Shown here: positions 7,640-48,900 of the stretch, one piece after another
Position numbering within the stretch: position 1 is the first letter of the stretch
Layout: every line of letters begins with the position of its first letter
Source: Cenococcum geophilum
Lineage: Eukaryota
DNA: 64,000 nucleotides
NCBI GenBank assembly: GCA_050273025.1
Contig: CP158635.1
Coordinates: 1,178,001-1,242,000, forward strand
Direction of reading: 5' to 3'
Made by a program: the position numbers and the translations under genes
Notes under the pieces: model-generated
Database searches by the model: none
Told to the model about the DNA's origin: nothing
What the model saw: only the letters and a program-made list of their open reading frames with translations

Positions 7640-7647
7640 TTAGTTTA

Positions 7648-24039: not shown

Positions 24040-25559
24040 ATAGGGCTTAGCATCTAAAAATCCAACTAATTAGATAACTTTAACCGCTGGTTAAAGTTCC
24101 TGGATATCTTAACAATATTCTAGTTACGTAATTGCACTTTACCGCAATCTGACGGTAATCTAATGGCAATTTACCCTTATATAGCAATGTATAACGGTTT
24201 AACTCTATAAGGGCTCCTATAGAGGATTAGGTATAAAGTTTTTACTTAGGCCCAGTTTCTATAGGTTCGCGTAGTAAAAGTCGCTAATTAGATCCTTTAC
24301 ATTTTTAAAGTCTTCCTATAGTTGCCATTCTGGCTAATTTATATCAAATCCTGTGTATATAGCTCTATAGTAGAGCCGTTGTCCTCTACCTTTACCAAAG
24401 TATTTAGAGTTAATAATTTATTTAATAGTCTACTCCTCGTAGTTCTCGTCTTCGTTCTTATCTTAGATTAGTACTAATAGGGGTTTAGGCTATATCTACC
24501 CTAGTAAGGGGTTAGGCTAATAAAGGTATAGTAGCTATAGGTAAAATACGGGCTATATCCCGTGGGTAGCTAGGGTAGGTAGGAGTTCTAGCTTATATAC
24601 GGCTCCCCTATTAATAACTCGTTTAATTAAATAGGGGCTAAGGTTTTTATAATTAAGTAACTTTATAGGCCTCTATATAGAGATATTGCGTATATCTAGC
24701 TATACCTAGTCGCCAACACGTATCTCCGGTGGTGGCGTTCTATAATAATTAGTAAAGTAGGCCTACTTTACTTAAGCCTAGGCCATTTCTCCCTTGCAGT
24801 AGTTAAGTAGATTTTTTATATAGTCTGCATGCTAGTTAGTAAGTAGTATCTTAAGGCGTTTTCTATATAGTAGTTTCTTATTAATAGGTTCTAGTGGCTT
24901 TATACTGGATTAGGGGTAATAACCCTTATTCGCGAAGAACGGGGTAAGTCCTATAGTGGTTAAGACGTAGTTATTTGCTGTAAATTTACCTAGTAGGAGG
25001 TAATCTACTTAGTTATCTTAACTATAGGCGACTACCTATCGTAGGTATACTTTTATACTGGCGTTAGCGTTTTCTAATTACCTAGCACGTCAGGAAAACG
25101 GGAAGTGGCGTAGGAAATTTGGTTTTGCTAAATGTGTTTTTGGGGCCCAGGGCTAGCTTTCCGCCATATTAGCCGACCCCCTGGAGCCTAGGGCCAGCTT
25201 TCTGCCATATTAGCTAACCCCCTAGAGCTATACGCTAGCTTATGGCTATAAAATAAATATTGTCACTATTATTGCATTTTTTGCCATTAGGGTATTAAAA
25301 TCCTAAAGGCCTCCTAGCAGGCTCTACGTCAGGAAAACGGGGAGTGGCGTAGGAAATTTAGTTCTGCTAAAAGCGTTTTTAGGGCCTAGGGCTAGCTTTC
25401 CGCCATATTCGCCAAAGCCTAGAGCTATTATAATTCTCAAATGGCCATGGCTAAAAGAGCGCAATACTATATATATTGCAGCAATAAGCCAGCTTATAGC
25501 TATAAAATAGATATTATTACCATTATTGCATTTATCGCAGATATTATATATATTGCTTT

Positions 25560-28500
25560 CATTAAAATCTATATTTATAACTATGCTTTTCGTTTACGGC
25601 TCTAACTCTTTATATATTTATTAGCAGCTTATTTACCTTTTAAAAGAAAATCTTTATTATATAATATATTAAACTAATTAAAATCAACCTAAGGATTAAT
25701 AAAAAAGCTTTAGGGCTCTAACCTAAGCTTTAATAGCACTATATACGCGCTACGGAGCACTAATAAAAGGTTATAAATACGACGTCCACTAATACTTCGT
25801 TAGCACTTTGCAAGAGATCGCTGCTATAGCTCTACCTCCACTATACCGTAAAAATCGTTTACGCGGCCTATATCTTTAAGACGAAGCAGGTTAACTAAAA
25901 CACCCATATATTAAAGCCACCTACCCTATAAGTTTAACCTTTCTTTATCTATAACTGTAATAATTAGTTAAGCCTTTCCAGGAAGTATACTGCTAAGAGG
26001 GTATATCTGCCCAGAAGTGGCAGTTTACGTATACTCTTACACCTATATATAATCTCGTCTCTATTTACCTTAGCTCTGCCAATTATATATATATTAGATA
26101 AACTCTTTAGCTATAGAGTCTAGGCTCTTTCCATCCCGCTTCTAACATTGGACTAAGTTATAGATGCACATAAAGTATAAGCCTACTTTAAAAGAATCCT
26201 CTTCTCTATAATCCATTTAAATATTAGTAGTAGAGGTTCTATCCTACTTATTACAATTCTCTTATAAAAACACAGCTAGTGCTTTAATAAAACCAGAAAG
26301 CCCTGTTTCGTTTTTAACTTAATATACCCAGCGCCATATTTTAATTAGGATACTAGCCTCTTCCGCTGCATATCTATTATCCTAGTTAATAAACTAGCCC
26401 ATATCGGTTAGGTCTACTAGTTGTGTTAAGGTTATAGCGTAAACTACCTTAGCAATGTCTACTGGCGATAAAGGTTTCGTCACTTTAAGCATACGGAGTT
26501 CTTTTATTGCTATTATTTGGAGGTACTAGGTATTATAATAGAGCAATTACTCCTAGTAGTCAGAGCGCTTATTTATACAGTTAAAAAATGCCTTTACTAG
26601 AAGTTTATACATAACCTTACTATACTTAACGTCTATACTAGTAAGGCTACCTATCTTATAGATATAGTAGGGGTAATAGGTAAGAGCGTAAAGCTTTAGA
26701 ATATTAAAGTGCCGTTCCTGCGTTACGCGGTATAATAGGCGGAATCTAAAGAAGGCGGTTTTTATCTGGTCTATAATATAGAGTACATATTCCATATACC
26801 TAATAGTATTATTATTATATAAAGCGTATTATATAAGCATTATAAAGTCCAAAACTGCTCAAGCATATAGCATTACTTCTATATATTCCTTTAGTATAAG
26901 GGGTACTAGTACTGCTATAAGCTATCACATTATATCCTTCCGGAGATAGCCTATCCATTAACCAACTAATATAAACTCTTTAAACCGTTTCATACTAACA
27001 AATTCCGGTATTTAACTAAATCGTTCATTTAGCACGGCATTAACATAGTCTTCAGTTAAACCCTACCACTTTAGTTACCCTTTTAATCGCCGTAGTTTTG
27101 CATTTTTAAGCAAGAGATTCTTAGTCCAGTCAATTAGGTCGGTTACTATCCCTTTTATAAGCTGGTGTAGTATATTAGGAGTTATACAGGTATAGATATT
27201 CACTAAGTAATGCTTCCAGGCAAAGTTTTATTATAGGTAAACCTAAGCATCGTCCAACTGTTTAATATTCCTTCTAGATTGGAGCTCTATTTATTGTCTT
27301 ATGCTTATATAATTACGGAACTTCCATTTAGCCTAGAGATTTCCTCGCTAGTCGGGCGGTATCTGGCATATAGTGTATTATCAAAGATTCTTTACACCTA
27401 TAATTACAACTTACTCCTTATAGTCCGCTATTATTAATAAAATAATAGGGTAACATACTCTTATCTTTCTGTCTATATAGGCAATATAAATACCAGTCTT
27501 TAAAATCATTTCTAGCGCTTAAGATGCCATCAGTTAATAATATACGGGTAGGTGGCTTAAAGCACTTATGGGCTAATATAAGTTCTATTACGGTATAGTA
27601 TACTTCTAATTTAACCTACCCTTTTATAATAGGAATAAACCTAAGTAATACTATACCCGGGCGTTTCTGTACATAGCAAGTTCGGCTATCTAAGTTAAAC
27701 ACCAAAGCATACACTGGATATATTATTATTTTACCTTATTCAGACAGTAAGGTCTTATTAGTCGCAATAACTAATAGTACTATAGTAGCGCCCAGTGGAA
27801 GCTAGTCCTACTAGTGCTACTAACAGTTACTAGTATAAACTTCTATATACATCCGTAAATTATCATCATTAAATAGTCAAACTGGGGCGTATATAAGATT
27901 TAGGGCGAATGGCTAGTAACCTAGTAAGAACCGTAGTACCTACACAATACTTCTGTATTGGATGTAGTATTCAGTCTATTTTATTAAACCCTTTCCTTTA
28001 TTAACTTGCAACGTATATTCTTCTTATTTTTTAGGCATAATACCCTGGTTTAATTAATTATATCTCCAAAATAAGTCGTTTAAGTTCTTTACAGATATCT
28101 AATCTTATAGTAGCGGAGCAAGCTAGGGGTCTCGTAGAAATTAATCAATAGCCCCCTATAACACTTTTTCTTGGACAAAGAATAGGGCAAGTATATACTC
28201 CGCTTTACTTTAAAATAGGTAGAATTCGGTTCTAGCGTCATTAGGTAGATTAGGGCATTACTAATATAGCTACGTCTTGTCTTTGGTCGCATAGTATTAC
28301 ACTAGTTCACCAGCACCTCTCCCAGTAACCTCTATATAGCCTTCTATCCTAACAAATATCGCAGTTAATAACAATCCTCTCTCTTATAGGGGGGGTTTCG
28401 GTTAGTTAATAGAGGTCTCTATAGTAGGTACCTCACAGCATATAGCCTGGTCGTTTAACAGTGGGGTAGATATCCCATTAGCAGTAATAATTACTATATC

Positions 28501-28860
28501 ATTATTGCGCAATACAAAGCCCTTATCTTTAGAAGATATTTGTCAGTTACAGTTGGCGATTTTTAGTATATTATCGAATCCGTCATCAGTAGTTTAATAG
28601 TTAAATTAGACCGGTTCATTCTTATCCTTACGTCTACGCCTTTTCTAGGGGTTGCTTTACCTTTAGATTTTATTCTTACATTTACATTTTATTTTATAAC
28701 GTTCCGCGCCACTAGTAGAATATAGGATTGCACGGTATCGGCTATATCTTCTATCTATAAAGTATACGGTAACTATTATAGATTTAGCTAGTGTTTACGG
28801 CTTATTAATACTTAACTTACTCTTATACTAGGGTAGTAATATATTAAGTAGATATAATAT
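25560..28860 (-). pseudogene. Plavaka-family transposase, RIP-mutated; boundaries approximate
   Basis: RIP-corrected motifs: YT.NWW..Q..LP.GATIV....ATDKT.LS...YPVY...GNL (~27840-27690), DYEEQ (~27420), CITPDILHQL.KG (~27190-27150), HFNIPKLHALTHY...I..IGS......E..HK..VK..F..TNK (ORF 26553-26795). Confidence 0.85.
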
Positions 28861-29069
28861 TATTATTTCTAGCTTTATAGTTAGTAAGGAGTAAAGTAGA
28901 CGCGTATAGAGGATTTTTTATAAACTACTTACGCGTGGAGTTTATAAGGTATTATATAATCCGCCAATAATAAGATACCTAAAAATGCAATATTTATAAT
29001 ATTACAGATATCTAACTCTTATAAACCACTAACCTCGAAATTATCTCCTATTAACATCACTAGATTTTA

Positions 29070-30240
29070 ATTTCTTATAATTCTAGTTCTAATATACACT
29101 GCCAAACCTATACGTTAGTTCGGTTTGCAATATTATAAATATTAGCATGCTATATTATATACCTAGGGCATACTATATATAATAGTCGCAATATCGCCTC
29201 CTCACATCCTTGTTTCCTACCTCTTAGCAGCACTACCTAGCTCTAGGGCATACACCAGACCCGCGCGTTAGTACGGTTTACAATATCGCAAATATTGGCG
29301 TGCTATATCGCATGCTATATATACAATAGTCGCAATATTACAACCTTAGTTCCCGCCTCTTAGCAGCACTACCTGGCTCTAGGGCATAGCACCAGACCTA
29401 TACGTTGGTACGATTTGCAATATTGCAAATATTAGCATACTATATCACACACCTAAGGCATACTATATATGCAATAGTCGTAATATTACAACCTTAGTTC
29501 CTACCTCTTAGCACCACTACCTGGCTCTAGGGCATAGCACTAGACCTATACATTAGTACGATTTACAATATTATAAATATTAGCGTGCTGTATCGCATAC
29601 CTAAGGCATACTATATATACAATAGTCGTAATATTACAACCTTAGTTCCCGCCTCTTAGCACCACCACCTAGCTCTAGGGTATAGCACCAGACCTATACA
29701 TTAGTATGATTTACAATATTGCAAATATTGGCGTGCTATATCGCATACCTAAGGCATACTATATATACAATAGTCGCAATATTATAACCTTGGTTCCCGC
29801 CTCTTAGCGGCACCACCTAGCTCTAGGGCATAGCACCAGACCTATACGTTAGTATAATTTGCAATATTACAAATATTAGCGTACTATATCGCATACCTAA
29901 GGCATGCTATATATACAATAGTCGCAATATTATAACCTTAGTTCCCGCCTCTTAGCAGTACCACCTAAGTTCTAGTTCCCTTAATCCCTAACCTAGGGCA
30001 TACTACTAGACCATTACATTAATATATTTTACAATATTGCAAATACTACCATACTATATCGCATACTTAAGGCATCTCATATCTACAATAATTATAGGCT
30101 TAACTCATTACCTTCTTATATCCCAGCTGCACTTAGCACTAATAGGTTTTGCTTCCCTTTAATCCCAGATCTAGGGCATATACTTAGCTCCCTATAACTA
30201 CAAGATTCCGCAATATTACAGTTATTTAAATATCGCGCTA
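29070..30240. repeat. Tandem array, 148-bp unit (about 5 regular plus degenerate flanking copies)
   Basis: caaccttagttccc recurs at 29341, 29489, 29637, 29785 and 29933. The unit holds the palindrome atttgcaatattgcaaat (e.g. 29413-29430). Confidence 0.93.
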
Positions 30241-30567
30241 TATACCTAAGAAATGGAATATATACATTATCTATAACATCTAAATCCTCTACCTAAGCTT
30301 TTAATTTATATTTTCTATATAATAATTATATTTTCCTAGGATCCTAATTATAAGACACCTCTACCCTTAGGCAATTATGCGTTTTCGTAATATTGCCAAT
30401 ATCTAGGGTTATGCACTTTCACTTTTATCTCTATACTTATTTATAAAATTAATTTACCTTACCGTCACAAATCTAGCCTCTAGTCATTTACTTCTATAAC
30501 ATTTAACCCTCCTTAACCCTCTCTTTTCTATATTATATTTCTTACTATATTATAAGCAACTCGCAAA

Positions 30568-33500
30568 ATGTTTTACTAGCGGCAGTTTTCGTATTATATC
30601 CTTTCTTATATTTAAGTTTAGCAAGTTATATATCTTAGTCTATTAGTGCTATACTAGTCCGCCCATTTACTAATCACGCTAATTAATCATTCTAGAATCT
30701 GTATTTTAACCCACTGTTAGGGTTCTGCCCTTCTATATAAATACCATCTAGGACGCCAAGACTGCTATCTAATCATCCTACAAGATAAACCCTAAGAGAT
30801 TAGAACTTAAGGCGGCAATACTATAGGGAAGCTAGGACTAAGTTAGGAATATATCTAGCACTTATAATTGTGTTCGCGCTAGAGAATACATTAAGTATGG
30901 GATATACAGCAATATAGAAGCGTTGGCGTTTAATAATTGCCGCCTTTAAGCAGTATCCCATCCAGTTATTTATAGAGAGGAGCTGCTCGGCACTATTATA
31001 GAGCGAAAATTAAAATGGTAGAAGGAGTAAGACTAGAATCAGCAAGCTAAAAAAGGGTAACACCATTTATAGGTAATAGGAATAATTCTAACCTAGTGCC
31101 TTCTCGCTAGTCTAGAACACCAGAGCTTATAAAAAAGCATTACTATAATAAATTAAAAGCACCTCCGGCTAACGCCCCAAGTGGGATCTCGCCGCACTTT
31201 ATTAAGAGTAAAGTAACTTTATAAGCTTGCTCTATAACAATATATTCTAGTACTACTTATATTATTACTTAGTCTTATTTCCAATCTATTATAAAGCAGA
31301 AGCCTCATAAGTCCGCCTACTAGACACTAGTTAGCCCATGCTAGAACAAGCTTATATTAATAGCTATCGCACCCAGTAGTAAGATTTGGCCTATAGGCTT
31401 TAACACTAAGCGCCCTTATAATAGCTATGGTCCTGCCTAATATAGGAAAAAGCTAGCTATTATAATTAGCGACGCTATAAACTCTAGTTTATAAATGCTA
31501 AAGCCGGAAGTCTAACTTCTATATAAGTGCTTTATATTGCAGGTATTTCAGCTCTTATAGCATATCACTAATATTTAAATCTAGTTATATCCTTATTAAA
31601 TACATAGGTTACAGCTAGCCCATTTCCAACCCTAGATAGCACAACTTCTATGCCAATAACGCCTTAAACCGGTATTTAGAAACTAGTCGCCACCAAAATA
31701 TCTACTAGTTCTGGTAACAATACCACCCTAACTAACCCGCTATTAATCCCCACCTATATTCCTAAAAATAGCGACCAGTTCACGGCTGGTATTGCTAAAA
31801 TTACTACCATTAGTAAAAATAATACTGTAATCTAAAAAGGACAATATAGATACTTCTAGAAGTCAGCCATCTCTACTACTAGCGTTAGTAAATACCCCCG
31901 AGCCGTACGGGATTAAGAAGATAGTACAATTAGAAAATAATATAACAACTCTAAACAACGCCATAGACGTAGAGTTTACTAACAGCAGTAATAACGAAGA
32001 TAATAGCGCTCCCCTCCCTAGTAAAGGTGATGGCGCTAAAAACGACTTCGTGGACTATAAGAATAAAAGGGATATTAGTAATCCCAATGCCACGTTTTTT
32101 TAATGCATGTACGTCCATATATCTCCAATATATCCAATATAAACGCTCTCTAAATTTAAAACCAATATTCATTTAGTTTAAATCCTGGCTTTAACTAAGT
32201 AATAAGGAAAGAATATAAGTATATTAACGAAAATCTATGACCAGAGGTATGCGGATGCCTCCGTTTTGATCCTAATACTAACTTTAACGCAGGTAGCCTT
32301 TTATTGCCACTATAGCCGGTTATAAAATCCTTTAGGGAAAAAAAATGTTAACTAATTACCGCCTATTGTCAGATTATATTTAAAAAAGACGACGTTAATA
32401 GCGGTATGCGCGCTAACTAGATAGGCTTAGGCAAGATAGTAACCGCAATTCTTGCCCATCTACTAAACTGATTAATTAATGTTAATAAATAGGCCATTTA
32501 GGATTCCCGAGTAAAAAGTATAGATTATATTTTACTTATTCCGGAGGGAAAGCCAAAAGCGCGGAATACTCCTTATGGGATAGATTATAAAGGCAGTATA
32601 CCTATATTAATAAGAATCTATATTCTAAATTTAAAGAGTTAATAGACTAACGCTTCTTATAGCGCTACCTAGACGTTTATTAGCCTGGGTAAACAATATA
32701 AAAGTAGGGCTTAGCTATTAACGTATTAAGGATATACGCAAATCCGTAGATATAAATAGTAGAAGGGATATTTAGTTTCGGCTAATCTATAATAACTATA
32801 ACAAAATAAACTGCAAGTTCCTCTCTAATATTCTTAAGTACTATAAAAGCAATATTATTCTTAATACAGATACCCCCAACGTTAAATATTATACCCTACT
32901 TATTAGCTTATCTAGATTTTGTTATTACTATAATATTAAAGTATTAAAAAAAATCTCTTAAGTCTACTAGGTATAAAATAGCACAGACTATAAAGTCCGA
33001 AATGCCCTGTTATATAGCACCATATATATCTTATCCAATTCTATTATATTAAGAAGCGCTTAACTTAAAGCTAGTAGTTAATTAGTAGGTCCGCGAAAAT
33101 TAGCTAATTAGATAATACCCTTGTCTGGTAATATTTTAGTGCTCCAAGAGGCGCTATTTCTAGTAATCTTGGCGCCTTTCTAGAAACTCTATTAATAAGG
33201 CAGGGTAATAAATGGGAGAGTAAGCCTGGTTATAATCTACTACTCGGCCCCAATGTCTTTATACTATAGGGAAGTGTTAATAAGATAGTTAGGACAAAAG
33301 TAAAGCTAACTAAAGGTGCTAGGAAGAAAATATAAGAGGTTATAAACGGCTTCTATAATATTATCCCCTAGTTCGTTATTAGATGTTTAATAAAGACAAA
33401 GTGGTTCATTAAGGAACTACTTATTTGGATTAAAGCGACGCGAACCAACCGGAACTCCCACACCACCTATAATCCCTTTGCTGCAAAGCAGATAAATAAG

Positions 33501-34420
33501 GCCACTTTTAACCTTAAAATAAAGTTTAAGCCACCATATAGTAAGAAATTAGTTGGCTAATTATATAGAGTGTTAAAACTATAATACGGAACTATAGAAT
33601 AATATTAGCTTAGTGTGGCATTATAGAAAGCCTTTATATCTATACCAGTTTTTCAAAATAGCATAATTAAAAGGACAAAGGTTAAGGTTTTAATATGCCT
33701 ATTATACCCATATGCTTATTAAAACAATAATAAATAAAATTATACCCTTGGCCGTTACAAGAACCTTAACAATTTAATCCTTTATAGTAAGTCAGACTCT
33801 TCTATACAGACAAGCCCAAATATAGATACCTTAAAGACTATTTTTACTAAACTTGGGCCTACTCGTAAATGTAATCTATAGAAATTAATTATATTTACCG
33901 CATTCCCTATAATCGCATTTATAATACGCCTAGTATATTATATTTATAATAAGCGCAATATTCTTACATCCCACTCTTTATTTAATCTCTTAGATATAAA
34001 TATAGCGAGAATACCTGCCATTTTATAGCTAGCCAGATCCAGATTAAGAGGGATAAAGTTATTATTAACGACTTCAACACCAAGGCCTACTAAGGCCTCT
34101 TACTTCTACCGGCCAGGATCCAGATAGTAACTCTTAGCAGTAACTTTACTACTTAAATCTCTTACTAAGTTTCGTTCTGCCGGTGTAAAATCAGTAGCTT
34201 AGAGCTTATTTTTAGTATTATAGATTTTAGAGCCGTAGATCAATCAATTAGCGTAGAGCCGTTATATTGTAGTAAAGCTATATCTAGGCAATCTATATCG
34301 TAATCCTTGGTATAATATTACATATAGAAATGCTTAATTGTAAGAATTATATTTTAATTAAATTTATAAGATTATAACTAAAAGTCCTCGCGGTATAGTG
34401 ATACGGTAAGTAATATAATT
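30568..34420 (+). pseudogene. SNF2-family ATPase-like gene, copy 1 (motif I and IV visible; II, V and VI not recognisable)
   Basis: GG.RAD(Q)MGLGKTVTAI at ~32400-32450 and KLIIFTAFP at ~33880. Segments are near-identical to copy 2 (31270-31810 vs 38410-38950; 32100-32580 vs 39260-39730). Introns present. Confidence 0.75.
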
Positions 34421-34694
34421 ACTGCTATTTAGAGCTAGCCCAATAAGATTAAAAATAGTTATCTCTAATATATATATATACATAACAAGAAGCGTAACTT
34501 ATAAAATTGGGCCTTAAGATTTAATCAAAAATATAATATTTATAATTTAAAGCCTTTGCTAATACATAATTTCACAATAAATAACCTTCTTTTTATTGTT
34601 CTTAACGCGCTACGGATAAGAATTAAACCTACTACGCCTAAGAGTTGCACTCGCGACATCTAATTACTCGATCTGGCTAGGTAGCTCAGTAACA

Positions 34695-34795
34695 ATACGA
34701 TAAGACTCGGCAACGATATAATAAGGCTTATAAGACTCGGCGACAATATAATAAGGCTTATAAGACTTAGCGGTAATATAATAAGACTTGGCGTC
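34695..34795. repeat. Short tandem repeat, ~31-bp unit, about 3 copies
   Basis: ataagactcggcaacgatataataaggctt repeated between two convergent cargo genes. Confidence 0.8.
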
Positions 34796-35099
34796 AAGCA
34801 CTAGGAGAATTTAGGGGTTACTCTATCACTATAGGAAGGCTATAATACTTAGCGTAGTATTAAACTTTAAAGATCCCATTTATGGAGTTTTTATTAATAA
34901 CCTATTAATAAAACGTTAACAGCGCTTAATTTTAGTACTTTTATTGGCGGGTATAGGCCTTTAAATTTATGGGTTTATATGGGATAATATAGTCTTTAAC
35001 GCCATTTAAAAGGCCTCCAATAATATTAGCAATATTATAAATATTAACGTGCGTTATATGCCATACATGCAATATTTAAAATCTCGCCTATTGCCGGAG

Positions 35100-36650
35100 T
35101 TATAGTTTCTATAACCCCGTATACACCCTAAACCCATATAATAGTGAGTTTATTTCATTTCTAATAGCTCCTCGCACTACTTACGTAACCTTAATTAAAT
35201 TTCCACGTTATGCGCCGCCTACCTAAGATCCTCTAAATAACTAGGATAGCAAACGCATAAAGTAAAAGCCCTATCCCATCTCAATTTTAGGCATTTACCG
35301 TCGTAATTACCTTAAAAGCTCCTTACTAACCCCCCATTAGATTTTCGTCGGACCGCCGTTCTACAGCTTACTCTTTAGCTTCTTAATTACTCGGCCAACC
35401 TCTCTATAACAATTATTGGCCATTAAACCGGCGTAGTTACTGATATTACTTGCGACTTCGAAGAGCTATTTACGGATAAGGTTTTTCTAGATACTATTAA
35501 GTCTTTAGTTTATAGCGTCTAGTTCGGCTATCTTAGACTCTTTTAAGTCCTTAAACTTAGTGTTAAGCTAGTTTTACTTATACTTCAGCGTAACTAGTTC
35601 TAGCAGCGATTTCTTAATCCGTTTAATTTCTGCCTTTAACTTATCGCGCTCCTTTATAAGACGGATTTCTAGGGCTAATTAGGCTGTCTTTATACAATCT
35701 AGCTCCGCCTTTAATTGGTCGTACTTAAGCGTCTAAGAATCCTCTATTAACTTTTATGTGCTCTTTATAGCCTCCAATTCTTGCACAAATTTAACTAACT
35801 TTTTAGACGTCGCAATAGACTTATTATGCCAATAATTAACTAATCTTAAATAAGATGAGACTGTTATATCTAGTGCCTTATATTTCGCTAAAAGCTTTTA
35901 AAACATTACCTTTCTCTAATTTATATTATTATGCGCTTCGGTTAGTGCGAATATAGTTTTATAACCTTAGAGTTATAGTCCTACTTTATTACTTAGGCGT
36001 CCTAAATTAGATTAACAATAGATATATTCTAAGCCTTCTTAGCTTTTTAAAGTTCCTTAATATTAGTCTTTAGACTCTCTATATTCTGGCGATTAGCAGC
36101 TAACGCAGTCTATAAAGTATCCTACTTCTCCTTTATACAACTAATTATCTAACTTATAACATTAAAGAGGTCCCCCTTTTATAGTTTTCTAGTTTCCATA
36201 ACAGCCATCTCTATAGCGCTATTTTTATTTAACTTAGTTCTCTCTAGACTATATATAGCGGCATTTCTAGCGGCCGACAGAATAGAATGGGTTGGCGAAG
36301 GCTTCTTAAGAGGTAGCTAAACTGTCTTTATAGCTTTAGCTACCTTACCATTCTTCTCTTACTTAATCAGAAACCCTCTAATCCCCTTTTAGCAACTATC
36401 CGCCGCCTTTTTCTTTCGCGGCTTTAGAGCTAGCTTTATAGTTCCATTTCCGTTCTTTAGTAACACCTTTTTAACATAGGGACGCTTAGTACGCTTAGCT
36501 AGGGTAGTTGTATACCCCAGCTTTTTATTTATCTATAATAACCAATTAGCGTAAGATATCTATAACTCCTTACCAGCATACGTACTATTGCGACGTTTAC
36601 CTTAAAATAGGTTAAGGGCTAGTATATAGTTAAGGTAAGGGGAAATTTAT
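35100..36650 (-). pseudogene. Unknown coiled-coil/basic protein, RIP-mutated; boundaries approximate
   Basis: The minus strand reads as an E/K/L/Q-rich helical stretch with a basic patch (RKKKAAD, ~36420) and a branch/acceptor signal (gctaattggttattatag, ~36550). No family recognised. Confidence 0.45.
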
Positions 36651-36729
36651 TCTAATATAGAGAGTAGGTAATAGATAGGTGGATATATAGTTTATAATAT
36701 CACGAATATCTTTACACTAATTTGTATAC

Positions 36730-37736: not shown

Positions 37737-40700
37737 ATGGCTTCTTAGGAAAGTAAGCTTAGTAAGTTAAACTATATAGGCCATTAAAGCTAAGCTAGTT
37801 TATCCTTTTACTATTTATACTAACCCGCTATTATAGGTCCTAAAGTATAGCCCATCGCCAATAACAAACCCTTACACCCGCATTCTATTTAGTACACCTC
37901 GGCTGCTATCTAGCCATTAGACGTAATAGTCTATTAGGGTTTAGCAATTAATATATCTGGGCTATATACGGCTAAGGCCTACCTTTAAAAGATACTTAAT
38001 AAACATAGATATTTTAAGGCTAAACAATACCGCTAAACCGAGATCCGTAGCAATATAAAAGCAATTACACTTACTAAGATTAACGCCTTTAAGCAGTGTC
38101 CCGATTAAACGTTTATAGAAAGAAGCTACTTAGCACTTATTATAAGGATAAAGTTAAACAAATTAAGAGTAAAATCGGAACCGCTAAGTTAAAAGAGGCC
38201 AACTCTATTAATAGACCCAGAAGATAACTTAGACTTAATTCCTCTACGCCTAAATAAAAACCGGAAAGGTTATAAGAAGCATTATTAAGCAAAACCAGAA
38301 ATACCTAAAGCTAACCCTTATGCCGGGATCTTACTATACTATATTAAGAGTAACGTAACCCTATCGGCGTATACTATATATATATCTCACAGTTCTAATA
38401 CTGCTATTACTTAGTTTCGTCTCTAAGCTATTATAAAAGATAAGTTTCATAGGTCCACTAATTAGACGCTAGACAGTTTATCTTAAGATAAGCTCGTATT
38501 AAAAGCTACCGCATCCAGTGGCGTATTTTATCCCATTAACTTTAATACTAAGTATTTATAAGATAGCTTCGGCCCTATCGGGAATAAAGAAGAGTTAGCT
38601 ACCGCAATTAGCGATACTATAAACTCTAGCTTATAGATGCTAAAGCTAGAAGTCTAACCTTTACGTAAGTGCTTTATATTACAAGTATTGCAGCTCTTTT
38701 AGTATATTGCTAATATTTAAATCTAGCTACATCCCAATTAAATAGATAGACCACACTAGACCCATTTCCGAACCTAGACAGTATAGCTTCTACGCCAATA
38801 ATGCCTTAGACTAATATCCGGAAACCAGTTATCACTAGAATATCTACTAGTTCTAGTAATAACGCCACCCTAACTAACCCGCCTTTAATCTATACCAATA
38901 TTCCTAATAATAGCAACTAGCCTACGCCTAGTATTGCTAAGACCACTACTATTGGCGGAAAGGATACTATAATAGGCGGAACCTCTAAGCAGGGCGATAA
39001 GGATGCTTCCAATAGTTAACTACCTCCGCTATTAGCGTCAGCGGATACTACAGAACTTTATAAAATTAAAAAGATTATATAGGTTAAAAGAAACGGAACG
39101 AATATAATAAACGTCATAGAAGTGTCGTCTAATAACAGTAGTAATAATAAAGATAATAACGATCCCCTCCCTAATGCAGGTAATAAGGCCAAAAACAACT
39201 TTAAGGACCATGCGGATAACGAGAAAGGGAATAATCCTAATATTACGTTCTTTAGACGCATATACGTATATATATCTCTAATATATCTAATATAGATACT
39301 CTCTTAATTTAAAACTAATTTTTTTTAGCTTAAATTCTAGTTTTAATTAGGCGATAAAGAAGGAGTGTAAATATATTAACGAAACTCTATAGTTAGAGGT
39401 ATGTAAATGCCTCCGTCTTAATCCTAACGCCAACCTTAACGCAGATAGCCTTTTATTGCCGCTATAGCCGGTTACAAAATCCTTTAGAGTAAAAAAATAT
39501 TAACTAATTACCGCCTATTACTAGACCGTAAATAAAAAATATAACGTTAATAGTGGTATATACGCGGACCAGATAGGCTTAGGTAAGACAGTTACTATAA
39601 TTCTTACCCATCTATTAAACAGATTAATTATTATTAATTAATAGGCTATTTAGGATTCCTGAGCAAAAAAAGATAGATTATATCTTACTTATTCTGCTAG
39701 GGAAGCTAAGGATGCGCAATGCCCCTTATAGGGTAGCCTGCTAATTTAGTGCATATATATTAACAAGAATCTATACTCCATATTTAAAAGACTTAATAGC
39801 CTAATACTTATAATAGCACCACCTAAAGCTCTATTGGCATAGAAAAAGAACATTAAGCTAGTATTTAGCGAAAATTACTTAACTATAATGCGCGAGAACA
39901 TAGGCAAGAATAAGGGCACCGCGGATATTCAGTTTCGAATTATATATAGTAACTACGCAAAAACGGCCTGGGAGTACCGGAAAGGTAACTCTAAATTCCT
40001 TCTTAGCTATATAGAGCCTAACCTAGATAACCCGGACGATATATTATATAATCCTCCCACTAATTTATCCCGCTTTATTATCGCCATGACTATTAAATGC
40101 TAGAAATAACGATTCCTGTACTTACTAGGCGAGATTCTACCTAGGGCACACTATTGATTAAACGCAGTAGTATGGCTCTATATGTTTTTTAATAAGTTTT
40201 ATACCACTAAGAATAGCTAAACTTAGTTATGGACTATAACTAGACAGCTCGCGATTTAGGCTTTACCGAATAATATCTATCTTTGGGGATATTCGGGCAC
40301 CCTAGCAGGCACTAGCCCTAGTAATCTCGCTATATTTCTGTAAACCTTAGCAATAGGGCGGGATAAAGAATAGGTAGAAAAGCCTAATTATAACCTGCTA
40401 CTCGGTTCTAATATCTGTACGCTATAGGCAAAAATGAATAAAATAGTTTAAATAAAAGCTAAGCTATTAAAGGAGGCTAAGAAAGAAATGGGGGCCATTA
40501 TTAACGGTTTTCGCGATATTGTTTCGCAATTTATAATTGGGCGCTCTATAAATATATAATGGTTTAATAACGAACTATTAATTAAAATTAACGCACGAAG
40601 AGTGGACTGGAATATTCATGTTAAGTATATAGGCGAGGTCTTAAAGCGATTAAATAAGGCTATAGACGAACTAAAGAAAGAGATTAATGCAGTATATAAG

Positions 40701-41608
40701 AGGAAACTAGCCAAGTGGAAGTAGAAAGGTTTAAACGCTAATTAAAAACCTACAAAACCATACTGGTCTAGCTCGGCATTTGCCTATAAGCTTCGAATCT
40801 TTACGGACTTCCTAGAGCTACAACTCTAGAAAAATAAGGGCAAAGATTTTAATATGCCTTTTACTAGCTTATATTTAGAAGGAGATAAAAATAAAGGCTA
40901 TATACTTAACTATTATAAGAACCCCAAGCAGTCTATATTTAAGCAAGAACTGCGTTTTATTGTGGCTTTAAGTCTAAAAATAGATACCTTAAAGACAGTT
41001 CTTATTTAGCTAAGGACTAACTATAAAGGTTATCCTAAGAAGTTGGTCGTCTTTACAGCATTCCCAGTAGCCGCCTTTATTATTTATCTAGTATGTCTTA
41101 TCTATTTTTAAAGTAATATTTTTATATTCTAACGCTGGATTAGTATCTTTATAATAGGTACAGATTAGGTAGTTATAAGTTAGTTAGCGGTAAGCTTAAA
41201 ATAGAAGAGAGAGAGAGCATCATTAAAAAATTCGAAAATAACCCCACTCTAAGATTCCTTATATTAACTACCGGTCTTATATCTAAAGTATATACTCTAA
41301 TTAGAACAAGCAAGGTGTTTATATTTAAGCTACAGCCGCTACCTACGGTTAAAGCTTAGGCATTTGGACGTACCTATAGGATTAGACAGCTAGAAGATAA
41401 AGTTACGAATATTAGGGCTGTATCTAATGAGGTTAATATAGAGGTGTATATTTAGCAGCGGGCTAAGAAACATAAGATCTTTATACTAGGCGCTTTTTCT
41501 AGAGCGCTAAAGCATTATATTAAAAAGAAGCACCTTTTTAGTGCCTTATTACTTAAGATTGCTTAATATATATTAGAACCGGGTTCTATTAGCAAGGCTA
41601 TATAGTAG
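37737..41608 (+). pseudogene. SNF2-family helicase/ATPase gene, copy 2 (motifs I-VI recognisable), RIP stops
   Basis: RIP-corrected: GG..ADQMGLGKTV (~39560), FFDEFH..KN (~40185), WGYSGT (~40285), KLVVFTAFP (~41040), ILILTTG...YTL.R.SKVFIFE (~41255) and QAFGR..RIGQ (~41357). Long N-terminal unknown and acidic region. Confidence 0.85.
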
Positions 41609-41936
41609 GGAATAGACGGTTTCTTCTATATACTTAATTGGCTTAATTAGTACCACTAGCTAAGTAGGTACTACCTCTACAGTATACTAATTACAATATA
41701 TTTTATAACACCTAGCTCTAAGTATATATGATAAAGATGTTACGGTTATTGTATATATATAAATATTATAAGAGAGGTAATAAATATAATATATTACGAA
41801 TATTGCAAATAATTAGTAGATATACCTATTTAGGTTTAGCCGCTATATAACTCCTTTTCCCTTACGCTTAATTATAACAACCACCATAAACAACCCAACG
41901 ACAATCGACAGCACTATACTGGGCATTTAAGCGCAA

Positions 41937-43023
41937 ATGGAACAGCAATCCAAACCTATGTCGCTTTCTTTAGTATATAAGGCCCACGCAATAAAAAACT
42001 GGTTAATAAAGTTTATCTGCCTAGGCCTAAAAATTAATAAAATATCATATAGCGACATTTATTCTACTATGGAATAGGGACTTACAGACATTTAAATGCT
42101 TGGTTTACGACTAAATAAGGTCGGGAACCGGTTAAGACTTAATTAGGTGTTTCGCAATATAATTAAATTATTTCCTACCGTTTTTATAGGCATACCAGAA
42201 CCTTGGCAGAGTAGGTATCTATCTATAATCGCCTAAAAATATAACAATAATCGGAAGCATTAAGTGTTAAATAGAGTAACAACCTTAGCATAAATCGAGT
42301 CCGTTGCGTATTATCTTAAATTAACTAATACACGCCGGCTAAGCAAAGAAGACCCAGAGTTAGTTACTTGGAATAGCCTTATATTTAGGACGGTGTAAAC
42401 TAAAGTAGTCTATAAAGGAGATAGCCGGGAAATGCTATGTAGTTATAGATACTTTATGGCCGGTAGTATACCAGATAATAAGATTACGTCAACCGATCTA
42501 AACTTTAGTCTATTTACTAGTGTACTCTTAGAAGATATTAGCTTTAATCCCATAAAACATAGAATTTTCTATTATAATAGCTAAGGAAGGGAGATAGAAG
42601 TTCTTACCAAACGGACCTAAAGGGCTGCTATAGATAAAATATATACTAAAGGACTTAATCGTTTTTATTTTACAGTAAGATATAAAGACTAAGGTAAGAT
42701 AGATTATACAAGCAATTTTAGCAATATTAGAAATATTCTAACGCATTTAAATAGGCACACTACACCCGGCTACTATACCTATATATATTGAAACCATTAC
42801 ACTATAAGCCGTTATAAGCAATTTATTATTAAAGCTACTAGGAATATAACTAGAGTTAGAGAGGAACCGTTTTAAGCCTAAGGGTTTAAGGGCATCTATA
42901 TAGGAAATTAGTAGTACACTTAGGCCAACGGTTTCTATATATAAAGTAGAATTAGTAAGCAATAAGTTAAAGCAGAAACGGGAGACCTCTGTCTAGCCTA
43001 AGAAAAAAAAACCAAGGGCCTAA
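41937..43023 (+). pseudogene. Hypothetical protein, RIP-mutated, basic C-terminus
   Basis: The RIP-corrected frame from ATG 41937 reads continuously (...DLDFSLFTSVLLEDIGFDP.KHRIFY...EIEVLT.RTWRAAIDEMYT.GL.RF.F.V), has an intron at ~42694 and ends KKKKPRA*. Confidence 0.55.
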
Positions 43024-43305
43024 TGTTATATTTATATTATACCAACTATCCCACGTACTATGCTACATTTTATATACCTAATATTTCCAATATAGTGTTG
43101 ATATATACACGGTTGCGCATATATGCTAGCTCAGCTAGATATACTAGATAGCTTAACCTAAGTAAGCAAGTCTTGAAATTAAAGAGCCCCTTTACAATTT
43201 TTACTTTTCTCCTCTCTCTTATTAATAATCTACATTAGTACTCTTTTTATAGGCCATTAAATACATCTTTAACACCAATATATTAAACCAATACTATTCT
43301 CTACT

Positions 43306-45281
43306 ATGGCCAAATTATCTAATATATAGGTTATTGCAGCGTCTAGCAGCCAGGTGCAACTTATATTTACTTTATAGCAGTGCCATATAGCTAATAAGAT
43401 AGAGCCTATAGTATTAGTAAGCTTAAAAAGACTAGCGTATACCTAAGGACGAATCCGATAGTAATAAGATTCTATTACACCCCTATCGCCCTTAAGACAC
43501 TTGCCGTAGAACTAATATAACTTAGTATAAGCTTAAATCTGCCACCTATTCTAAGTCATTAGTTTAGAAAATAGTAAGGCCTACACACCTAGTATATAGA
43601 TTAACTATTTACCTATATATATAGGGTTATCGTGACATATTGCCTAATAAACGCCATTATTAACTAAGTACTGCCAAGGACGGAAGCACTAACGGTATAA
43701 AACGATTAAGATATAAACTAGAACTACTCTAGCAGGGAGTACGACGGCAGGCCAAGTTTAACTCTATACCCGCATATATACCTATACTAGCCTATACTAA
43801 GCTACTTATGCAGGCTATAGTTATAACAGGCTACTTTAATCCTTCCTATAGGCTCTCTCTATGGCCAGAAAGATAGAAGTCGGGCCTAAACGCACTAATT
43901 ATTAATGCTTGGCGAAAGGCTGGTTCGAACAATTAGGGGCGTATATTTAACGATATTCGGCCTCTACCTAAACCAAAAGAAGCTTATAGGGTAAGTCTCT
44001 AAAATCTACACCTCCTACTAGCAATATTTAAAGTAATACTAACACAGTATATATCGCAAAACTATAGTTATTTAACTGCGTTAGCAACTTTAGATCCTAT
44101 ATTCTAAGTAATATTCGTATAGTTATATATATACATTATCCGTTCCTTAATATACTAGATACCTAAGCTCTAGTCTTTTAACTACTTAAAGACAACGCAT
44201 TTGCATACGCATATTCAAAGCTTATAAGCCCTACTATATACTCCTAGAGTTTACCTACTAATAACGGAAGGGGAAACAACAATTTGCAGCACCCGTAATT
44301 ATTAAGTGTATTGCTTAATGCTTTTTTAACCCAAACTCAAAAGGCCTAGCTTTATATCCTTAGACATCCGAGTATTTCTACCCACTTTTAGCTTACACTA
44401 TTGTACTAATTACTACTTATATTTAATATGCACTCACTAAATATAAAAAGGGAGGTCCGTGGCAAATAGTTAAGGTAGATATAATAGGAGAACTAAACGG
44501 TATAAGTAATACTCTAATCTATATATATATTATAAGATACTAATTTATAAAGCAACGTATTATTAAATTTGGAAGATATAGGACGCGTAAGCTTCTAACA
44601 GAAAGGCTAAACTACTATAGGTAATAGCTGGTCTTATTTAGAAGTAGATATACAAAACTAGCAACCTAGTTAATAATATGTATGCAGTATATAATCCATA
44701 TATAGATAACACCGATAATCTAGATAAGCTTAAGCTATATACAACCTAGTATAAGTTTAAGTTCTTAGTAATAGATAGCTTTCCTATCTCTAGCAGCGAT
44801 AACTTAAGGCCTACCAGTTCTTCCTCTTTTGCTTATATAGATAAGGTAACGCTAGTAAGGAGTAAAGATTTAGGTTTAGATTAAAGGGTAAGTAAAAGCA
44901 CATTTCTAAACATTATATTAATAACTTAACTAGGGCACTTTACGCTTGACCTTAATCTCTTTGCCGTCAATAACTATAAATAGCCCGCCTACCTAAAACT
45001 ATAAGGCTTCTTGCTTTAGGGTTGCTTAGTACTATAACTTAGATAATAAACTATATATACTTAATGTACTATATATAATAACACCAGATAGACTACGAAA
45101 CTTACTAGACGTTAAAGAAGAAGATTTTCTTTAGTATACTCTTAGAAAGAGGGAAAAGCTACTAAATAATAGCAGATTTAACGTATTTTTGGAGTCTGTA
45201 TAGTAAAAGGAAAATAACAATATTAAAATAAGGCTAGGATTGCCTAAAGATAACAACCTAGATGCATAGTTACTTCCTTAA
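43306..45281 (+). pseudogene. DUF6532-like protein, multi-exon, RIP-mutated
   Basis: 44283-44455 reads FAAPVIIKCIA.CFFNPNSKGLAL.P.TSEYFYPLLA.TIVLITT.I.YALT.Y.KG, which resembles the DUF6532 core from memory. Several GT-AG introns. Confidence 0.6.
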
Positions 45282-45344
45282 GGTATATAGATAATATTTT
45301 ACTTTCTTTCTAATTATTATATAATAATTTTTTTTTATATATAA

Positions 45345-45975
45345 AATATTATAATTATTACAGTCATAAAAAATATTGCGATTATTATAGTTATAGTATT
45401 ATAGTCGTAGGAAATATTATAATTATTACAGTTATAAGAAATATTGCGACTATTATAGCTATGGGAAATATTGCGACTATTACAATTATAGGAAACATTA
45501 TAAATATTATAACTATTGCAGTCGTGTAAAATATTGCAACTATTACAGTTATGGAAAATATTGCGACCATTACAGTCGTGGGAAATATTGTAACTATTAC
45601 AGTCGTCAAAAATATTGCAACTATTACAGTCGTAGAAAATATTGCGACTATTGCAGCCATAGGAAATATTATAACTATTGCAGTCAAGGAAAATATTGCA
45701 ACTATTGCAGTCGTGGGAAATATTGCAAATATTGCAGTCATGGGAAATATTACAACTATTGCAGTCGTGGAAAATATTATAACTATTGCAGTCATAGGAA
45801 ATATTGCGACTATTGCAGTCGTGGGAAATATTGCGACTATTATAGTTGTGGGAAATATTACAAATATTACAGTCGTGGGAAATATTGCAACTATTGCAGT
45901 CGCGGGAAATATTATAAATATTGCAGTTATGGGAAATATTGCAACTATTACGGTTATAGGAAATATTATAATTTT
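45345..45975. repeat. Subterminal tandem array, 27-bp unit (~20+ copies)
   Basis: ggaaatattgcractattgcagtcgtg repeated; this produces the spurious ORFs 45391-45795 and 45551-46009. Confidence 0.95.
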
Positions 45976-48900
45976 AAGATATAAGGTTGCTAAAGTAGCC
46001 CCAGGCTAGCGTAAAAAAGTGTATATAAGCAGATTAGCGGATCCAGCGGAAATGACCCCGGGCTAGCCCCGGGCTAGCCCCTAGCTAGCCCCTACTACTC
46101 TCCCGTTTTCCTAACGCAGTTTTATAATAGAAGAATATAGATATCTTAACGGAGATGCCAAGGCGTTAGCAGATTTGTCTCTATATATTAGAGTTAAATT
46201 ATATGCCTTAGTTAGACGTAATTGAGTTAGGTAACCTATATAGTTAGTAAACTTCGCGAAGGAAGGCGTTAGTAACGTCACTAATGGCTACGCCTTCGGT
46301 TAGGACGTAGTGGCGCTCTTTTATAAGTCGGCATATTATTATAAGGATATTCTTATAGGTACGGCCGTGTCGTTTATAGGGTAGTAGGTTAATAACGAAA
46401 TCTATGGCGATATCTGCCTATTATTATATAGGTACTAGTAGAGGATATAGTAGTCCTTAGTACTTTATATTAAAGGCCTTAGCGCGCTTATAACTATAGT
46501 AGGCGCCTATAAAGCGTTTAACTAAGTCTATTATTTTTAGCCAGAAGTAGTATCGGCTAAGAAGCTTATAGGTTCCTTTTCTACCTAGGTAGCCGCTTAA
46601 TCGGAGGTCGTAGGCCATTTAGATTAGTTGCCGTTATAGATTTTCTAAGTTAGGGATAAATAGGCGGCCTTTATAATAGAGCCTATTCTCTTTTACTTTT
46701 AAGGCTACTATATTAATCTAGCCTAAGCTTTAGAGGTTAGTAGGCAGCGTATAGGCGCCGGCGGTCTTTATAGCAATAAGTTAATATAATAATAGGTCGG
46801 TAAAGGCGTTATATACTATAGTAATAAGCTTATTAATTTTGGGAGGTAACTTTAGTTCTGTGATATAAAGCTAGGGTATAGTTAGCTCTATTATAGGTAG
46901 TATGCCTAAGGCCAAATTTCGTGCTTTTAGGATCGTCTGTTATTAGAACTAATTATAGGGGTTATCTTTAAACTAAGGAAGGTCTTGCGAGCGGCGTATT
47001 AGGCTATTAGGTTTAGTACCTTATACTCCTAGTCTATATACAATTTTAAAGTTAAAACTAGAGAGGAACTTATTCTAATATACTTAGCGTTAGTTTAGCT
47101 ACTTTATGGTTATAAAGTACTTAAGGTTGCAATAGTCCGTAAGGACTTTAGTTAGCTAGTTAGGCTCTACTAAGGAGAGTTCTAGTTAGAATTCTTCAAA
47201 CGCTTATATAATTATAAGGAGTTCTTTATTATAGATCTCGTAGTTATACTCTTATAGTATAAGCTTAGACGAGTAGAATGCGACTAGGTAAAGGAGACCG
47301 TTATTACCTATTTAAGAAAGGATACCTGCGTTAACGTAGTCTAAGGACTTGGTTTTAAGGTAGAGTTATTATCCTAGTATAAAGTAAGCTAGAATAGATG
47401 CTTTAGTAAAGGTATTTTTAAGGTCTTAAAACGCCTTCTCGCATTTAGGCGTCTAGGTAAAGCATAGGTGCGTTTTTCTTCCTTTTACAGAAAGGCCCTT
47501 CGTTTGTATTATTATTATAAGTAGTGCTACTATACCTAAGAAGTTGTATATAAATTTCTAATAGAAGTTAGCGAAACTTATACGCCCTTAATATAGTTAA
47601 GGGCTTACTATTTGGTAATTATGCGTACCTTCTTAGGGTCTATACGGACACCCTTAGTAGTAATAATTAGTCTAAGGTATTTTACTTCTATAACTAAGAA
47701 TTCGCATTTCTTTAAATTAATATAAAGTCCTATGTCCCTAAGGCGCTATAGGACCTTTTAAACGTGTTCTGTATACTTAGAGGGGTTATTGCTATAAATA
47801 AGTATATTATCTAGGTACGCGGAGTAGAAGTCATTAAGGTAATCCTATAAGGCGTTATTAATATAGCTTTAGAAGGTGCCTGGGCCGTTATATATACTAA
47901 AGGGCATAACGGTATATTTAAATTGGCTAAAGCGCGATGCAAATGCGGTTTTCCATTTATCACCTTCCCGTATTTAGAGGTGGTTAAAGGCGGCAATAAT
48001 ATTAAGCTTAGTATAGATTTTGGCTTAACTAAGCCGCTTAAGGGTCTTACGTATAAGCGGTACTAGGTATTAGTTTTTAATTATAATAGCGTTAAGTCCT
48101 CTATAGTTAACGTAGAATTAAATACCTCCTTTTAGCTTCTTAGCGAGAAGAATAGGGGCGGCTACTAGTGATATACTGGGACGAATAAATCCTTTATTAA
48201 GGTGCTTATTAATATACTTTTTTATAACTAGAAGCTCGTCTTTTAATATTAGGTAGAGTCTCTTATAAGGTAGCATTTTTCCTTATTTAATATTAATGGT
48301 ATAGTCATTAGGTCGATATAGGGGGAGTATATTTACGCTCTTTTGTAAGCATATATTGGTAAAGTTATAGTACCTCTTAGGGAGGAGCTTATAGAGTTCT
48401 TCGTTAGTAAGTCCTTTTTTAAGCTTTATAAACTTCTTAAAGTCTAAAGGTAAAAGTCCGTAGAGTTCTATAGGGGCGTTATCTTCTAGAAGGTTAACTA
48501 TGTCTATCCTATTACTATAGAGGACGTAGTCCTATTCTTTATTAAGCTTATATAGTTGTAATTAAGAAGCTGTAGTAACGGTCTAGCCTTTCTTACGTGC
48601 TATACGGTAAAAGGCTAGGGCACTTATATAGTGGCAGTTGGTTATAGGTGGGATAATAAGGGGTTCCTTAGGTTAATATCCTAGGGAGTAAATAGAGGCG
48701 GCTAGGCTATGTCCTAGGCAAGTCTCTCTATAGTATTTAGAGTTAAAGGTTACTTCTTTCTTCTTCTAGTTAATAGCAGGGTTATATTATTTAAGCTAGT
48801 TTATTCTAAGGATAATAGGGTAATTAATAAGTAGTATTATATAGGCCTAGAGTTCTTCCTAGTACCTATTTATATCTAGGTGGAGTTATACTATATAGGT

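Follow-up and report, generated by a model that had tools for sequence, protein, structure and literature searches.

The locus described here raises the question of whether a 21-kb block of degraded sequence in Cenococcum geophilum is a single transposon with chromatin-remodelling genes of its own, or a transposon that acquired such genes incidentally. The window, which is the whole stretch of 64,000 nucleotides that was analysed, covers positions 1,178,001 to 1,242,000 of the forward strand of contig CP158635.1 (GenBank assembly GCA_050273025.1). Positions are counted from its first letter. The block at 25088-46116 is best explained as one copy, killed by repeat-induced point mutation (RIP), of an autonomous cut-and-paste transposon of approximately 21 kb. 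This transposon is of the Plavaka type (CMC/EnSpm-related) and has its own SNF2 and DUF6532-like genes. The probability assigned to this explanation, with the mechanism proposed below included, is roughly 0.72.

The insertion is 21,029 bp long and is bounded by terminal inverted repeats (TIRs) of 15-17 bp. The left TIR is CGTCAGGAAAACGGG (25088-25102, plus strand) and its partner on the right is CGTTAGGAAAACGGG (46102-46116, minus strand); the two differ by one C>T transition. In the comparison of ends the repeats extend to CGTCAGGAAAACGGGAA on the left (25088-25104, plus strand) and, as a reverse complement, CGTTAGGAAAACGGGAG on the right (46100-46116, minus strand). With up to two mismatches allowed, CGTYAGGAAAACGGG has five matches in the window, compared with 0.07 expected, and five matches are reached in none of 100 shuffles.

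The flanks of the element are two parts of one repeat, and an uninterrupted sister copy of this repeat is present at approximately 12-18.5 kb. The sister copy is of the Ty3/Gypsy type and contains, in order on the minus strand, the Pfam domains RVP_2, RVT_1, RNase H and Integrase_H2C2. A domain scan of its plus strand is empty. The 21-kb element sits in the integrase end of a Gypsy retrotransposon. In the sister copy, the empty site reads GCCTAGCAGTTTTATAG (also given as GCCTAGCAGTTTT) and has the CA only once, at 13371-13372. In the filled site, GCCTAGCA is followed by the element (CGTCAGG...CCTAACG) and then by CAGTTTTATA, with CAGTTTT directly after the element. The CA is present on both sides, at 25086-25087 on the left and at 46117-46118 on the right. 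The comparison of the empty and filled sites therefore indicates that 21,029 bp and a 2-bp CA duplication were inserted as one event. Precise ends, a CA target-site duplication and movement of the whole 21 kb as a unit had been claimed in an earlier, sequence-only reading of this locus, and the length of exactly 21,029 bp with its CA duplication bears these claims out.

A six-frame Pfam scan of 25088-45400, in which each stop was written as X, recovers three families only: Plavaka, Helicase_C and DUF6532. The Plavaka DDE transposase relic lies on the minus strand at 25632-28065, as delimited by PF18759 and tblastn, with a frame change near 27518-27559. Its N-terminus probably reaches about 28.9 kb, beyond the detected part. 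The PF18759 matches (27126-28065, minus strand) occur in two frames with E-values of 3.9e-14 and 4.4e-15 and exceed the cut-off of 26.3 bits. In tblastn searches with intact relatives that are described below, the open reading frames (ORFs) of metagenome contig L003 match the relic with E-values of 4e-67 (25635-27518) and 5e-13, and the protein P0043 matches it with an E-value of 9e-45. When aligned with the intact relatives, the relic keeps the conserved blocks and its CxxC motif is decayed. The intact relatives read QCGTCQVP and LHQLQKG, and the relic reads XXYTICQIP, in which one cysteine is kept and the other position is changed, and LHQLIKG. The profile and tblastn matches confirm the transposase named in the sequence-only reading.

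Two SNF2-family ATPase relics are present on the plus strand. The span of each is approximate. Relic no. 1 (30550-34250) was delimited with the profile of intact relatives and has a motif I remnant at 32421-32438. Relic no. 2 (37700-41400) was delimited by phmmer and the same profile, and contains motif I (GLGKT) at 39573-39590 and a helicase C lobe at 41040-41389. The profile, which is built from 13 intact relatives, matches relic no. 2 at 39360-41138 with an independent E-value of 3.6e-50 and relic no. 1 at 33168-33938 with an independent E-value of 4e-9. These two matches indicate two SNF2-family relics, as had been proposed. In relic no. 2, the Pfam Helicase_C match (41168-41383) is weak, with an E-value of 0.002 that is under the curated cut-off. 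On the plus strand of 29000-36000, which covers relic no. 1, Pfam finds nothing.

The phmmer query was a 619-residue frame of relic no. 2, read with X for stops, and the target was a set of 1.84 billion representatives. The search returned 41 matches, comprising 19 short ORF fragments (31-148 amino acids, 43-84% identity) and 22 longer proteins (22-31% identity). We read the short fragments as probable further degraded copies in public metagenomes. Most of these fragments (13 of 19) match both SNF2 relics, P0039 is nearer to no. 1, and the database fragments match relic no. 1 over 32113-33950. PF00176 is present in 11 of the 12 distant full-length matches that were scanned with Pfam, five of which also contain Helicase_C. 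The remaining one, P0010, was rejected as a false match, being a bacterial protein with Ig repeats. Among the 13 proteins in the profile, 11 were scanned with Pfam and all of these contain PF00176. A word-based protein search with the RIP-degraded relic gave no matches among 691 candidates, and a word-based search with P0014 returned P0014 itself only.

Both SNF2 relics lie within a duplicated block, the two copies of which are found at about 29.1-34.15 kb and 36.7-41.3 kb. The SNF2 coding parts of the two blocks are 71% and 55% identical, and transversions account for 29% and 43% of the differences, respectively. Given this divergence, the two genes are old paralogues rather than unrelated pieces of cargo. 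Among solved structures, those matched by the intact relatives are chromatin remodellers or repair translocases, without a clear subfamily. The SNF2 proteins form a divergent family with a conserved cysteine cluster, unlike the standard remodellers matched in the PDB. In the intact SNF2 relatives, an invariant cluster of the form C..CCPC is inserted between helicase motifs I and Ia. This insert may be metal-binding and a mark of this divergent SNF2 family.

The DUF6532-like relic is located on the plus strand at 44250-44609. PF20149 matches 44250-44453 with an E-value of 1.2e-5 and a score of 25.8 bits, compared with a cut-off of 24, and the match covers profile positions 99-168 only. In a tblastn search of the window, an ORF of metagenome contig L002 (9627-10142) matches 44271-44609 with an E-value of 1.3e-6. 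A further relic on the minus strand (35180-36550) extends over two reading frames and was noted by eye in the translations. It is rich in lysine and glutamate and looks like a coiled coil; it has no Pfam match and no match to the ORFs of the relatives. The six gene relics of the sequence-only reading are thus reduced to four that can be named: the Plavaka transposase, the two SNF2 genes and the DUF6532-like gene, the last of which is above its Pfam cut-off. The two 'unknown genes' match neither Pfam nor the ORFs of the relatives. All gene relics in the element have been destroyed by RIP.

Repeated motifs link the ends of the element to the SNF2 genes. A 148-bp tandem array, A1 (29102-30180, plus strand), lies between the transposase and SNF2 relic no. 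1 and contains the 13-mer TAGTCGCAATATT and the palindromic TTGCAATATTGCAA. A second 148-bp array, A2 (36686-37461, plus strand), precedes SNF2 relic no. 2 and is 89% identical to A1, with 93% of the differences being transitions. The right subterminal region contains a 27-bp tandem array of about 21-24 units (45317-46017, minus strand). With up to two mismatches, the 13-mer has 43 matches in the window, compared with 3.6 expected, and none of 100 shuffles has as many. The 13-mer reads forward in A1 and A2 and is inverted in the 27-bp array on the right. The left subterminal region (25088-25565, plus strand) consists of a 239-bp unit that is present twice, with a second copy of the TIR at 25327-25341 and 41-bp repeats at 25141-25241. 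Contigs of other copies differ in the number of 239-bp units and have joints near 25224-25450.

Between the two Gypsy copies there are 584 transitions and 33 transversions. The C>T changes are followed by A in 80 cases, T in 58, G in 18 and C in 10, and this context is that of RIP in Pezizomycotina. All six sub-regions of the 21-kb element that were measured have a TpA/ApT ratio of 1.47-1.57, compared with 0.82 for the genes at 1-6000. RIP requires repeated DNA, and its uniform signature across the element is evidence that the cargo belongs to the repeated unit. The two SNF2 paralogues are too diverged from one another for mutual triggering of RIP.

Logan contigs of four runs, comprising the likely source sample and, from other studies, three samples that carry a second organism label, were aligned to 24900-44899 at a likeness of 80% or higher. 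Runs with a share below 0.2, among them a root and a soil metagenome, were left out of this alignment and carry no information on habitat. The number of aligned contigs per run is 4118 to 11371 and all 30 bins are covered in all four runs, a measure of contig cover and not of copy number. Most aligned contigs have a likeness of 90-99%, and their differences from the window are almost solely transitions. For each part of the element there are many diverged versions.

No sign of a second mobile element is found inside the first. In the six frames of 25088-45400 there is no tyrosine recombinase, second transposase or reverse transcriptase among matches with E-values up to 0.01-0.1, a search whose sensitivity is lowered by RIP. 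This agrees with the earlier statement that the element is unrelated to the tyrosine-recombinase-driven Starships. No internal TIR pairs are present in the element, and its internal inverted repeats are AT-rich, at most 39 nucleotides long and at most 88% complementary.

Three features of the Logan alignments are recorded here as separate observations. In each of the four runs, the summed contig depth at 24900-25566, which includes the Gypsy flank and the left terminus, is 10-30 times that of the element interior. An abundance of short derivatives that share the terminus would be compatible with this, as would the Gypsy flank by itself. One contig of run X7 joins 29286 to 36737 and skips 7450 bp, corresponding to the first SNF2 block plus the sequence that follows. 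The joint possibly represents a variant with a single SNF2 gene, or an effect of the repeated arrays, and it is not used as evidence. Loose contig ends at 34381 and 35513 could in principle point to a nested insert, a reading that was rejected; their length is 8-17 letters, and the end at 34381 resembles sequence of the window.

Intact relatives of the element are found in other genomes. JGI metagenome contigs were searched with a 4-sequence alignment of intact SNF2 relatives; the 13-sequence alignment (A2 in that series) was too diverse. Six loci were recovered. Two of these (L005 and L006) have a GC content of 0.76 and an E-value of 2e-5, look bacterial and were dropped, and L001 is 1.1 kb long and without gene context. 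The remaining contigs, L002 (11.3 kb), L003 (11.2 kb) and L004 (5.4 kb), have 98.6-99.99% mutual identity and are therefore counted as one instance. They are free of RIP decay, with a GC content of 0.47 and a TpA/ApT ratio of 0.83. On one strand they contain, in order, an SNF2 relative, an internal tandem array, a Plavaka transposase and a DUF6532-like ORF of 172 amino acids. The SNF2 relative matches P0023 with an E-value of 3e-39, and both ESM Atlas features and its own model indicate SNF2-rel_dom. The transposase has E-values of 1.8e-46 and 6e-25. The 172-amino-acid ORF has a weak DUF6532 match (E-value 0.0013), and its language-model features score 0.98 to DUF6532 clusters.

In L002 and L003, the sequence of the internal array corresponds to that of the 13-bp arrays near the outer ends of the contigs when read in reverse complement. 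The motif differs from that of the window, and the array design is the same. The merged L002/L003 contig has one and the same 13-bp array, similarly oriented, at its start and at its end (L003 205-539 and L002 11179-11344), and may represent tandem or circular copies, or a break in the repeat. No TIRs are seen in the merged contig.

The second instance, P0043, was retrieved by a search of longer proteins with the intact transposase. It is a gene model of 2001 amino acids from Chlorociboria aeruginascens with 49% identity over the transposase. Its domains are, in order, Helicase_C (8.7e-17), Plavaka (2.9e-73) and a weak DUF6532 (0.0028). The helicase lobe matches SNF2-family structures only, and the DUF6532-like part matches the L002 ORF with an E-value of 1.5e-23.

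Because an SNF2-type helicase, Plavaka and a DUF6532-like gene adjoin in these intact relatives, the SNF2 and DUF6532-like cargo looks integral to the element rather than a one-off capture. The same is suggested by the uniform RIP, the diverged copies of all parts, the lack of nested domains and internal TIRs, the arrays that carry the element's own subterminal motif, and a 1.4-kb member of the family in the same window. One-off capture and nested inserts had been named at the outset as what would overturn the proposal, and the finding of the same gene neighbours in the metagenome contigs and P0043 answers against both.

These two alternatives differ in where the SNF2 genes would have come from. 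Under the first, a Plavaka element in this fungus took up host SNF2 genes together with further pieces of host DNA, none of which serves the element. In favour of this, capture of host genes by DNA transposons is known, the inner sequence of the 1.4-kb relative (6239-7639) is foreign, and the outside instances have one SNF2 gene and not two. The linkage of three gene kinds in two distantly related intact elements speaks against such a capture, and the two SNF2 copies are old paralogues. In addition, the arrays before the SNF2 genes carry the element's subterminal motif, and the divergence and cysteine cluster of the SNF2 proteins set them apart from standard remodellers. A one-off capture is very improbable. 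A nested composite, in which SNF2-carrying transposons inserted into a smaller Plavaka element before or after its arrival, is at least as hard to credit. It would suit surroundings that are rich in nested, RIP-degraded repeats, and the joint in the X7 contig would remove the first SNF2 block. This joint falls inside the near-identical 148-bp arrays with 48 letters on its short side, and may be the result of unequal recombination or an alignment effect. The uniform level of RIP, the absence of internal TIR pairs and the lack of a second transposase, reverse transcriptase or recombinase domain in the six frames all argue against a composite.

Several points weigh against an autonomous Plavaka element with its own SNF2 and DUF6532-like genes. 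A single full-length copy, that in the 64-kb window, was examined, and the cover by Logan contigs does not give the number of others. The 2-bp duplication is documented at one insertion only; the flanks of the 1.4-kb copy are AT / TT. Neither SNF2 relic has a direct Pfam match to SNF2-rel_dom (PF00176), and their identity as SNF2 derives from homology to intact SNF2 proteins that were themselves retrieved with relic no. 2. The independent outside instances number two, and neither shows termini. P0043 may be a fused gene model, and alignment of its helicase to the SNF2 alignment with hhalign is not significant (E-value 0.019), so that membership of the same SNF2 subfamily is not established. 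The relatives have one SNF2 gene on the same strand as the transposase, whereas the window has two that are divergent from it. The copy is dead, and function cannot be read from it.

In the mechanism proposed for the autonomous element, the Plavaka DDE transposase would recognise the CGTCAGG termini, excise the whole unit and re-insert it, leaving 2-bp duplications. The 13-mer arrays would be binding sites of a DNA-binding protein encoded by the element, either the N-terminus of the transposase or the DUF6532-like protein. The SNF2 ATPases would be long-kept accessory motors that are recruited to the element's own DNA. They may keep the element accessible, allowing expression or excision from silent chromatin, or they may counter silencing. 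This role in chromatin access or anti-silencing is tentative, with odds that we place somewhat short of even.

The SNF2 ATPases might instead serve transposition itself as a DNA translocase or helicase, through synapsis of ends that are 21 kb apart, the removal of bound proteins from these ends, or a contribution to donor-site repair. In this they would be akin to the helicases of Helitron, AcademH and KolobokH. The linkage of SNF2 and transposase is kept across transposases that are only 27-49% identical, and arrays with the subterminal motif adjoin the two genes in L002 as they do in the window. Helicase-bearing DNA transposons also exist (PMC10799480). The solved structures that were matched are chromatin remodellers or repair translocases of no clear subfamily, many Plavaka families move without SNF2 (none is mentioned in the accessible text of PMC12730594), and the dead copy gives no evidence either way. 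Such a mechanical role is possible and, on present evidence, unlikely. The remaining probability falls to some other function or to none.

A broader version of the autonomous-element reading treats SNF2, Plavaka and DUF6532 as the gene set of an old and conserved lineage of Pezizomycotina transposons. The SNF2 motor would be loaded on motif arrays that mark ends and promoters, by a sequence-specific partner that is either the DUF6532-like protein or the N-terminus of the transposase. The element would then remodel its own chromatin to escape heterochromatic silencing or to be excised from it, and would encode a self-targeted remodeller. Taken as a whole this scheme is speculative, and we consider it unlikely.

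The family extends beyond the 21-kb element. A gene-less, non-autonomous member of 1.4 kb lies on the minus strand at 6239-7639, and both of its ends match those of the 21-kb element. Its inside is unrelated to the 21-kb element and less affected by RIP, and no clean duplication is seen at its flanks. Since it has both family ends, non-autonomous elements also belong to the family that these ends define. Within the 1.4-kb element, the inner part (6481-7138) is 68% identical to 60231-60884, a stretch that adjoins tandem arrays of 12/27 bp and 30 bp (60883-61344) and at which no TIR of the family was found.

Other repeats surround these elements. Another TIR-bounded element (7646-10149) lies 6 bp from the 1.4-kb element and has inverted ends of 43-65 nucleotides that start with TAACGTAAGTGATAGGGTTATGACGG and are 92-93% complementary. 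A perfect 40-nucleotide inverted repeat (62070-62109 and 63607-63646) has arms 1.5 kb apart, which may be the ends of a small TIR element. The surroundings as a whole are a nest of RIP-degraded repeats that includes the Gypsy copies, the TIR element at 7646-10149 and the 1.4-kb element.

Few cut-and-paste transposons contain genes other than that of the transposase. Plant VANDAL elements, which encode an anti-silencing protein, are an example of those that do. Within Agaricomycotina, some PlavakaB families carry a TET/JBP accessory gene aimed at epigenetic silencing (Kojima 2025, PMC12730594). The few passengers known from such transposons (TET/JBP; methylase/SET and ParB/oxygenase, described below; the VANDAL protein) point to a fight over epigenetic silencing. 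If an SNF2 motor, along with motif arrays specific to the element, is indeed kept beside the Plavaka transposase in several distant ascomycete elements, chromatin remodelling would be added to this list. Intact relatives such as the Chlorociboria locus would give a testable system. For annotation, an element of this type would explain large RIP-degraded blocks and stray SNF2-like fragments in the repeat regions of fungi. Across eukaryotes, a count has been made of gene models in which chromatin domains, SNF2_N included, are fused with transposon domains (bioRxiv 10.1101/2021.11.30.470311).

The termini place the element near one of the two groups described in Agaricomycotina. PlavakaA has a 2-bp duplication and TGT..ACA termini, and PlavakaB has a duplication of 2-3 bp and CATCA..TGATG termini (PMC12730594). 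The window element is like PlavakaB, as presented in the accessible text, in its transposase, which matches PF18759, and in its 2-bp duplication. Its termini, CGTCA..TGACG, match CATCA..TGATG at four of five positions, the second base being G and not A. The termini as found, CGTCA...T(G>A)ACG, are identical to none of TGT..ACA, CATCA..TGATG and the CATAC of truffle Plavaka, and because they are near but not identical to those of PlavakaB they represent a new terminal variant. The window element further differs from PlavakaB in its host, which has RIP of the Pezizomycotina type, and in its accessory genes, which are SNF2 and DUF6532-like and not TET/JBP. In the text of PMC12730594 as available, supplementary sequence files aside, SNF2 does not occur.

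Plavaka had been regarded in the sequence-only reading as known mainly from basidiomycetes. The group is also present in an ascomycete truffle (PMC12581995) and in red algae (bioRxiv 10.1101/2025.02.11.637652). In the Chinese white truffle, Plavaka consensus elements have 2-bp duplications, short TIRs and the motif 5'-CATAC-3' (PMC12581995). The window element shares with these an ascomycete host, 2-bp duplications and short TIRs; the TIR motif differs, and accessory genes are unmentioned in the accessible part of that paper. In the red alga Bostrychia, Plavaka elements of 17-19 kb carry three accessory genes that are predicted to act on DNA or chromatin (bioRxiv 10.1101/2025.02.11.637652). 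These resemble the window element in their large size, conserved accessory genes and tandem arrays by an accessory gene, which were there proposed as self-binding sites. The Bostrychia elements belong to another kingdom and carry PAG1, PAG2 (adenine methylase and SET) and PAG3 (ParB-like and 2OG oxygenase), not SNF2 and DUF6532. In the accessible text of the preprint, the sole mention of SNF2 concerns host gene families.

More distant systems share single features with the window element. En/Spm (CACTA) of maize has a transposase of a related superfamily, and its subterminal repeats of a short motif, the TnpA sites, bind a second protein encoded by the element. These sites are a parallel for the proposed 13-mer binding sites. 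En/Spm has CACTA termini and 3-bp duplications, neither of which is found in the window element, and is without an ATPase gene. Starships are large cargo-carrying elements of Pezizomycotina that are moved by a tyrosine recombinase. In contrast, the window element has a DDE transposase, TIRs and a 2-bp duplication, and the tyrosine-recombinase 'captain' was not found in its six frames. AcademH, going by the title of an article by Kojima, is said to be a helicase-encoding DNA transposon. Helitron and KolobokH are DNA transposons with their own motor of the superfamily-2 type (PMC10799480). All three differ from the window element in their transposases and helicase families.

In the literature found, which did not cover Repbase and Dfam, there is no description of an SNF2-type motor with a Plavaka transposase or of a Plavaka element with SNF2 and DUF6532-like genes. 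Plavaka in an ascomycete and giant Plavaka elements with accessory genes are thus already known, and the combination of SNF2 and DUF6532-like genes is what the C. geophilum element adds to the systems described in that literature.

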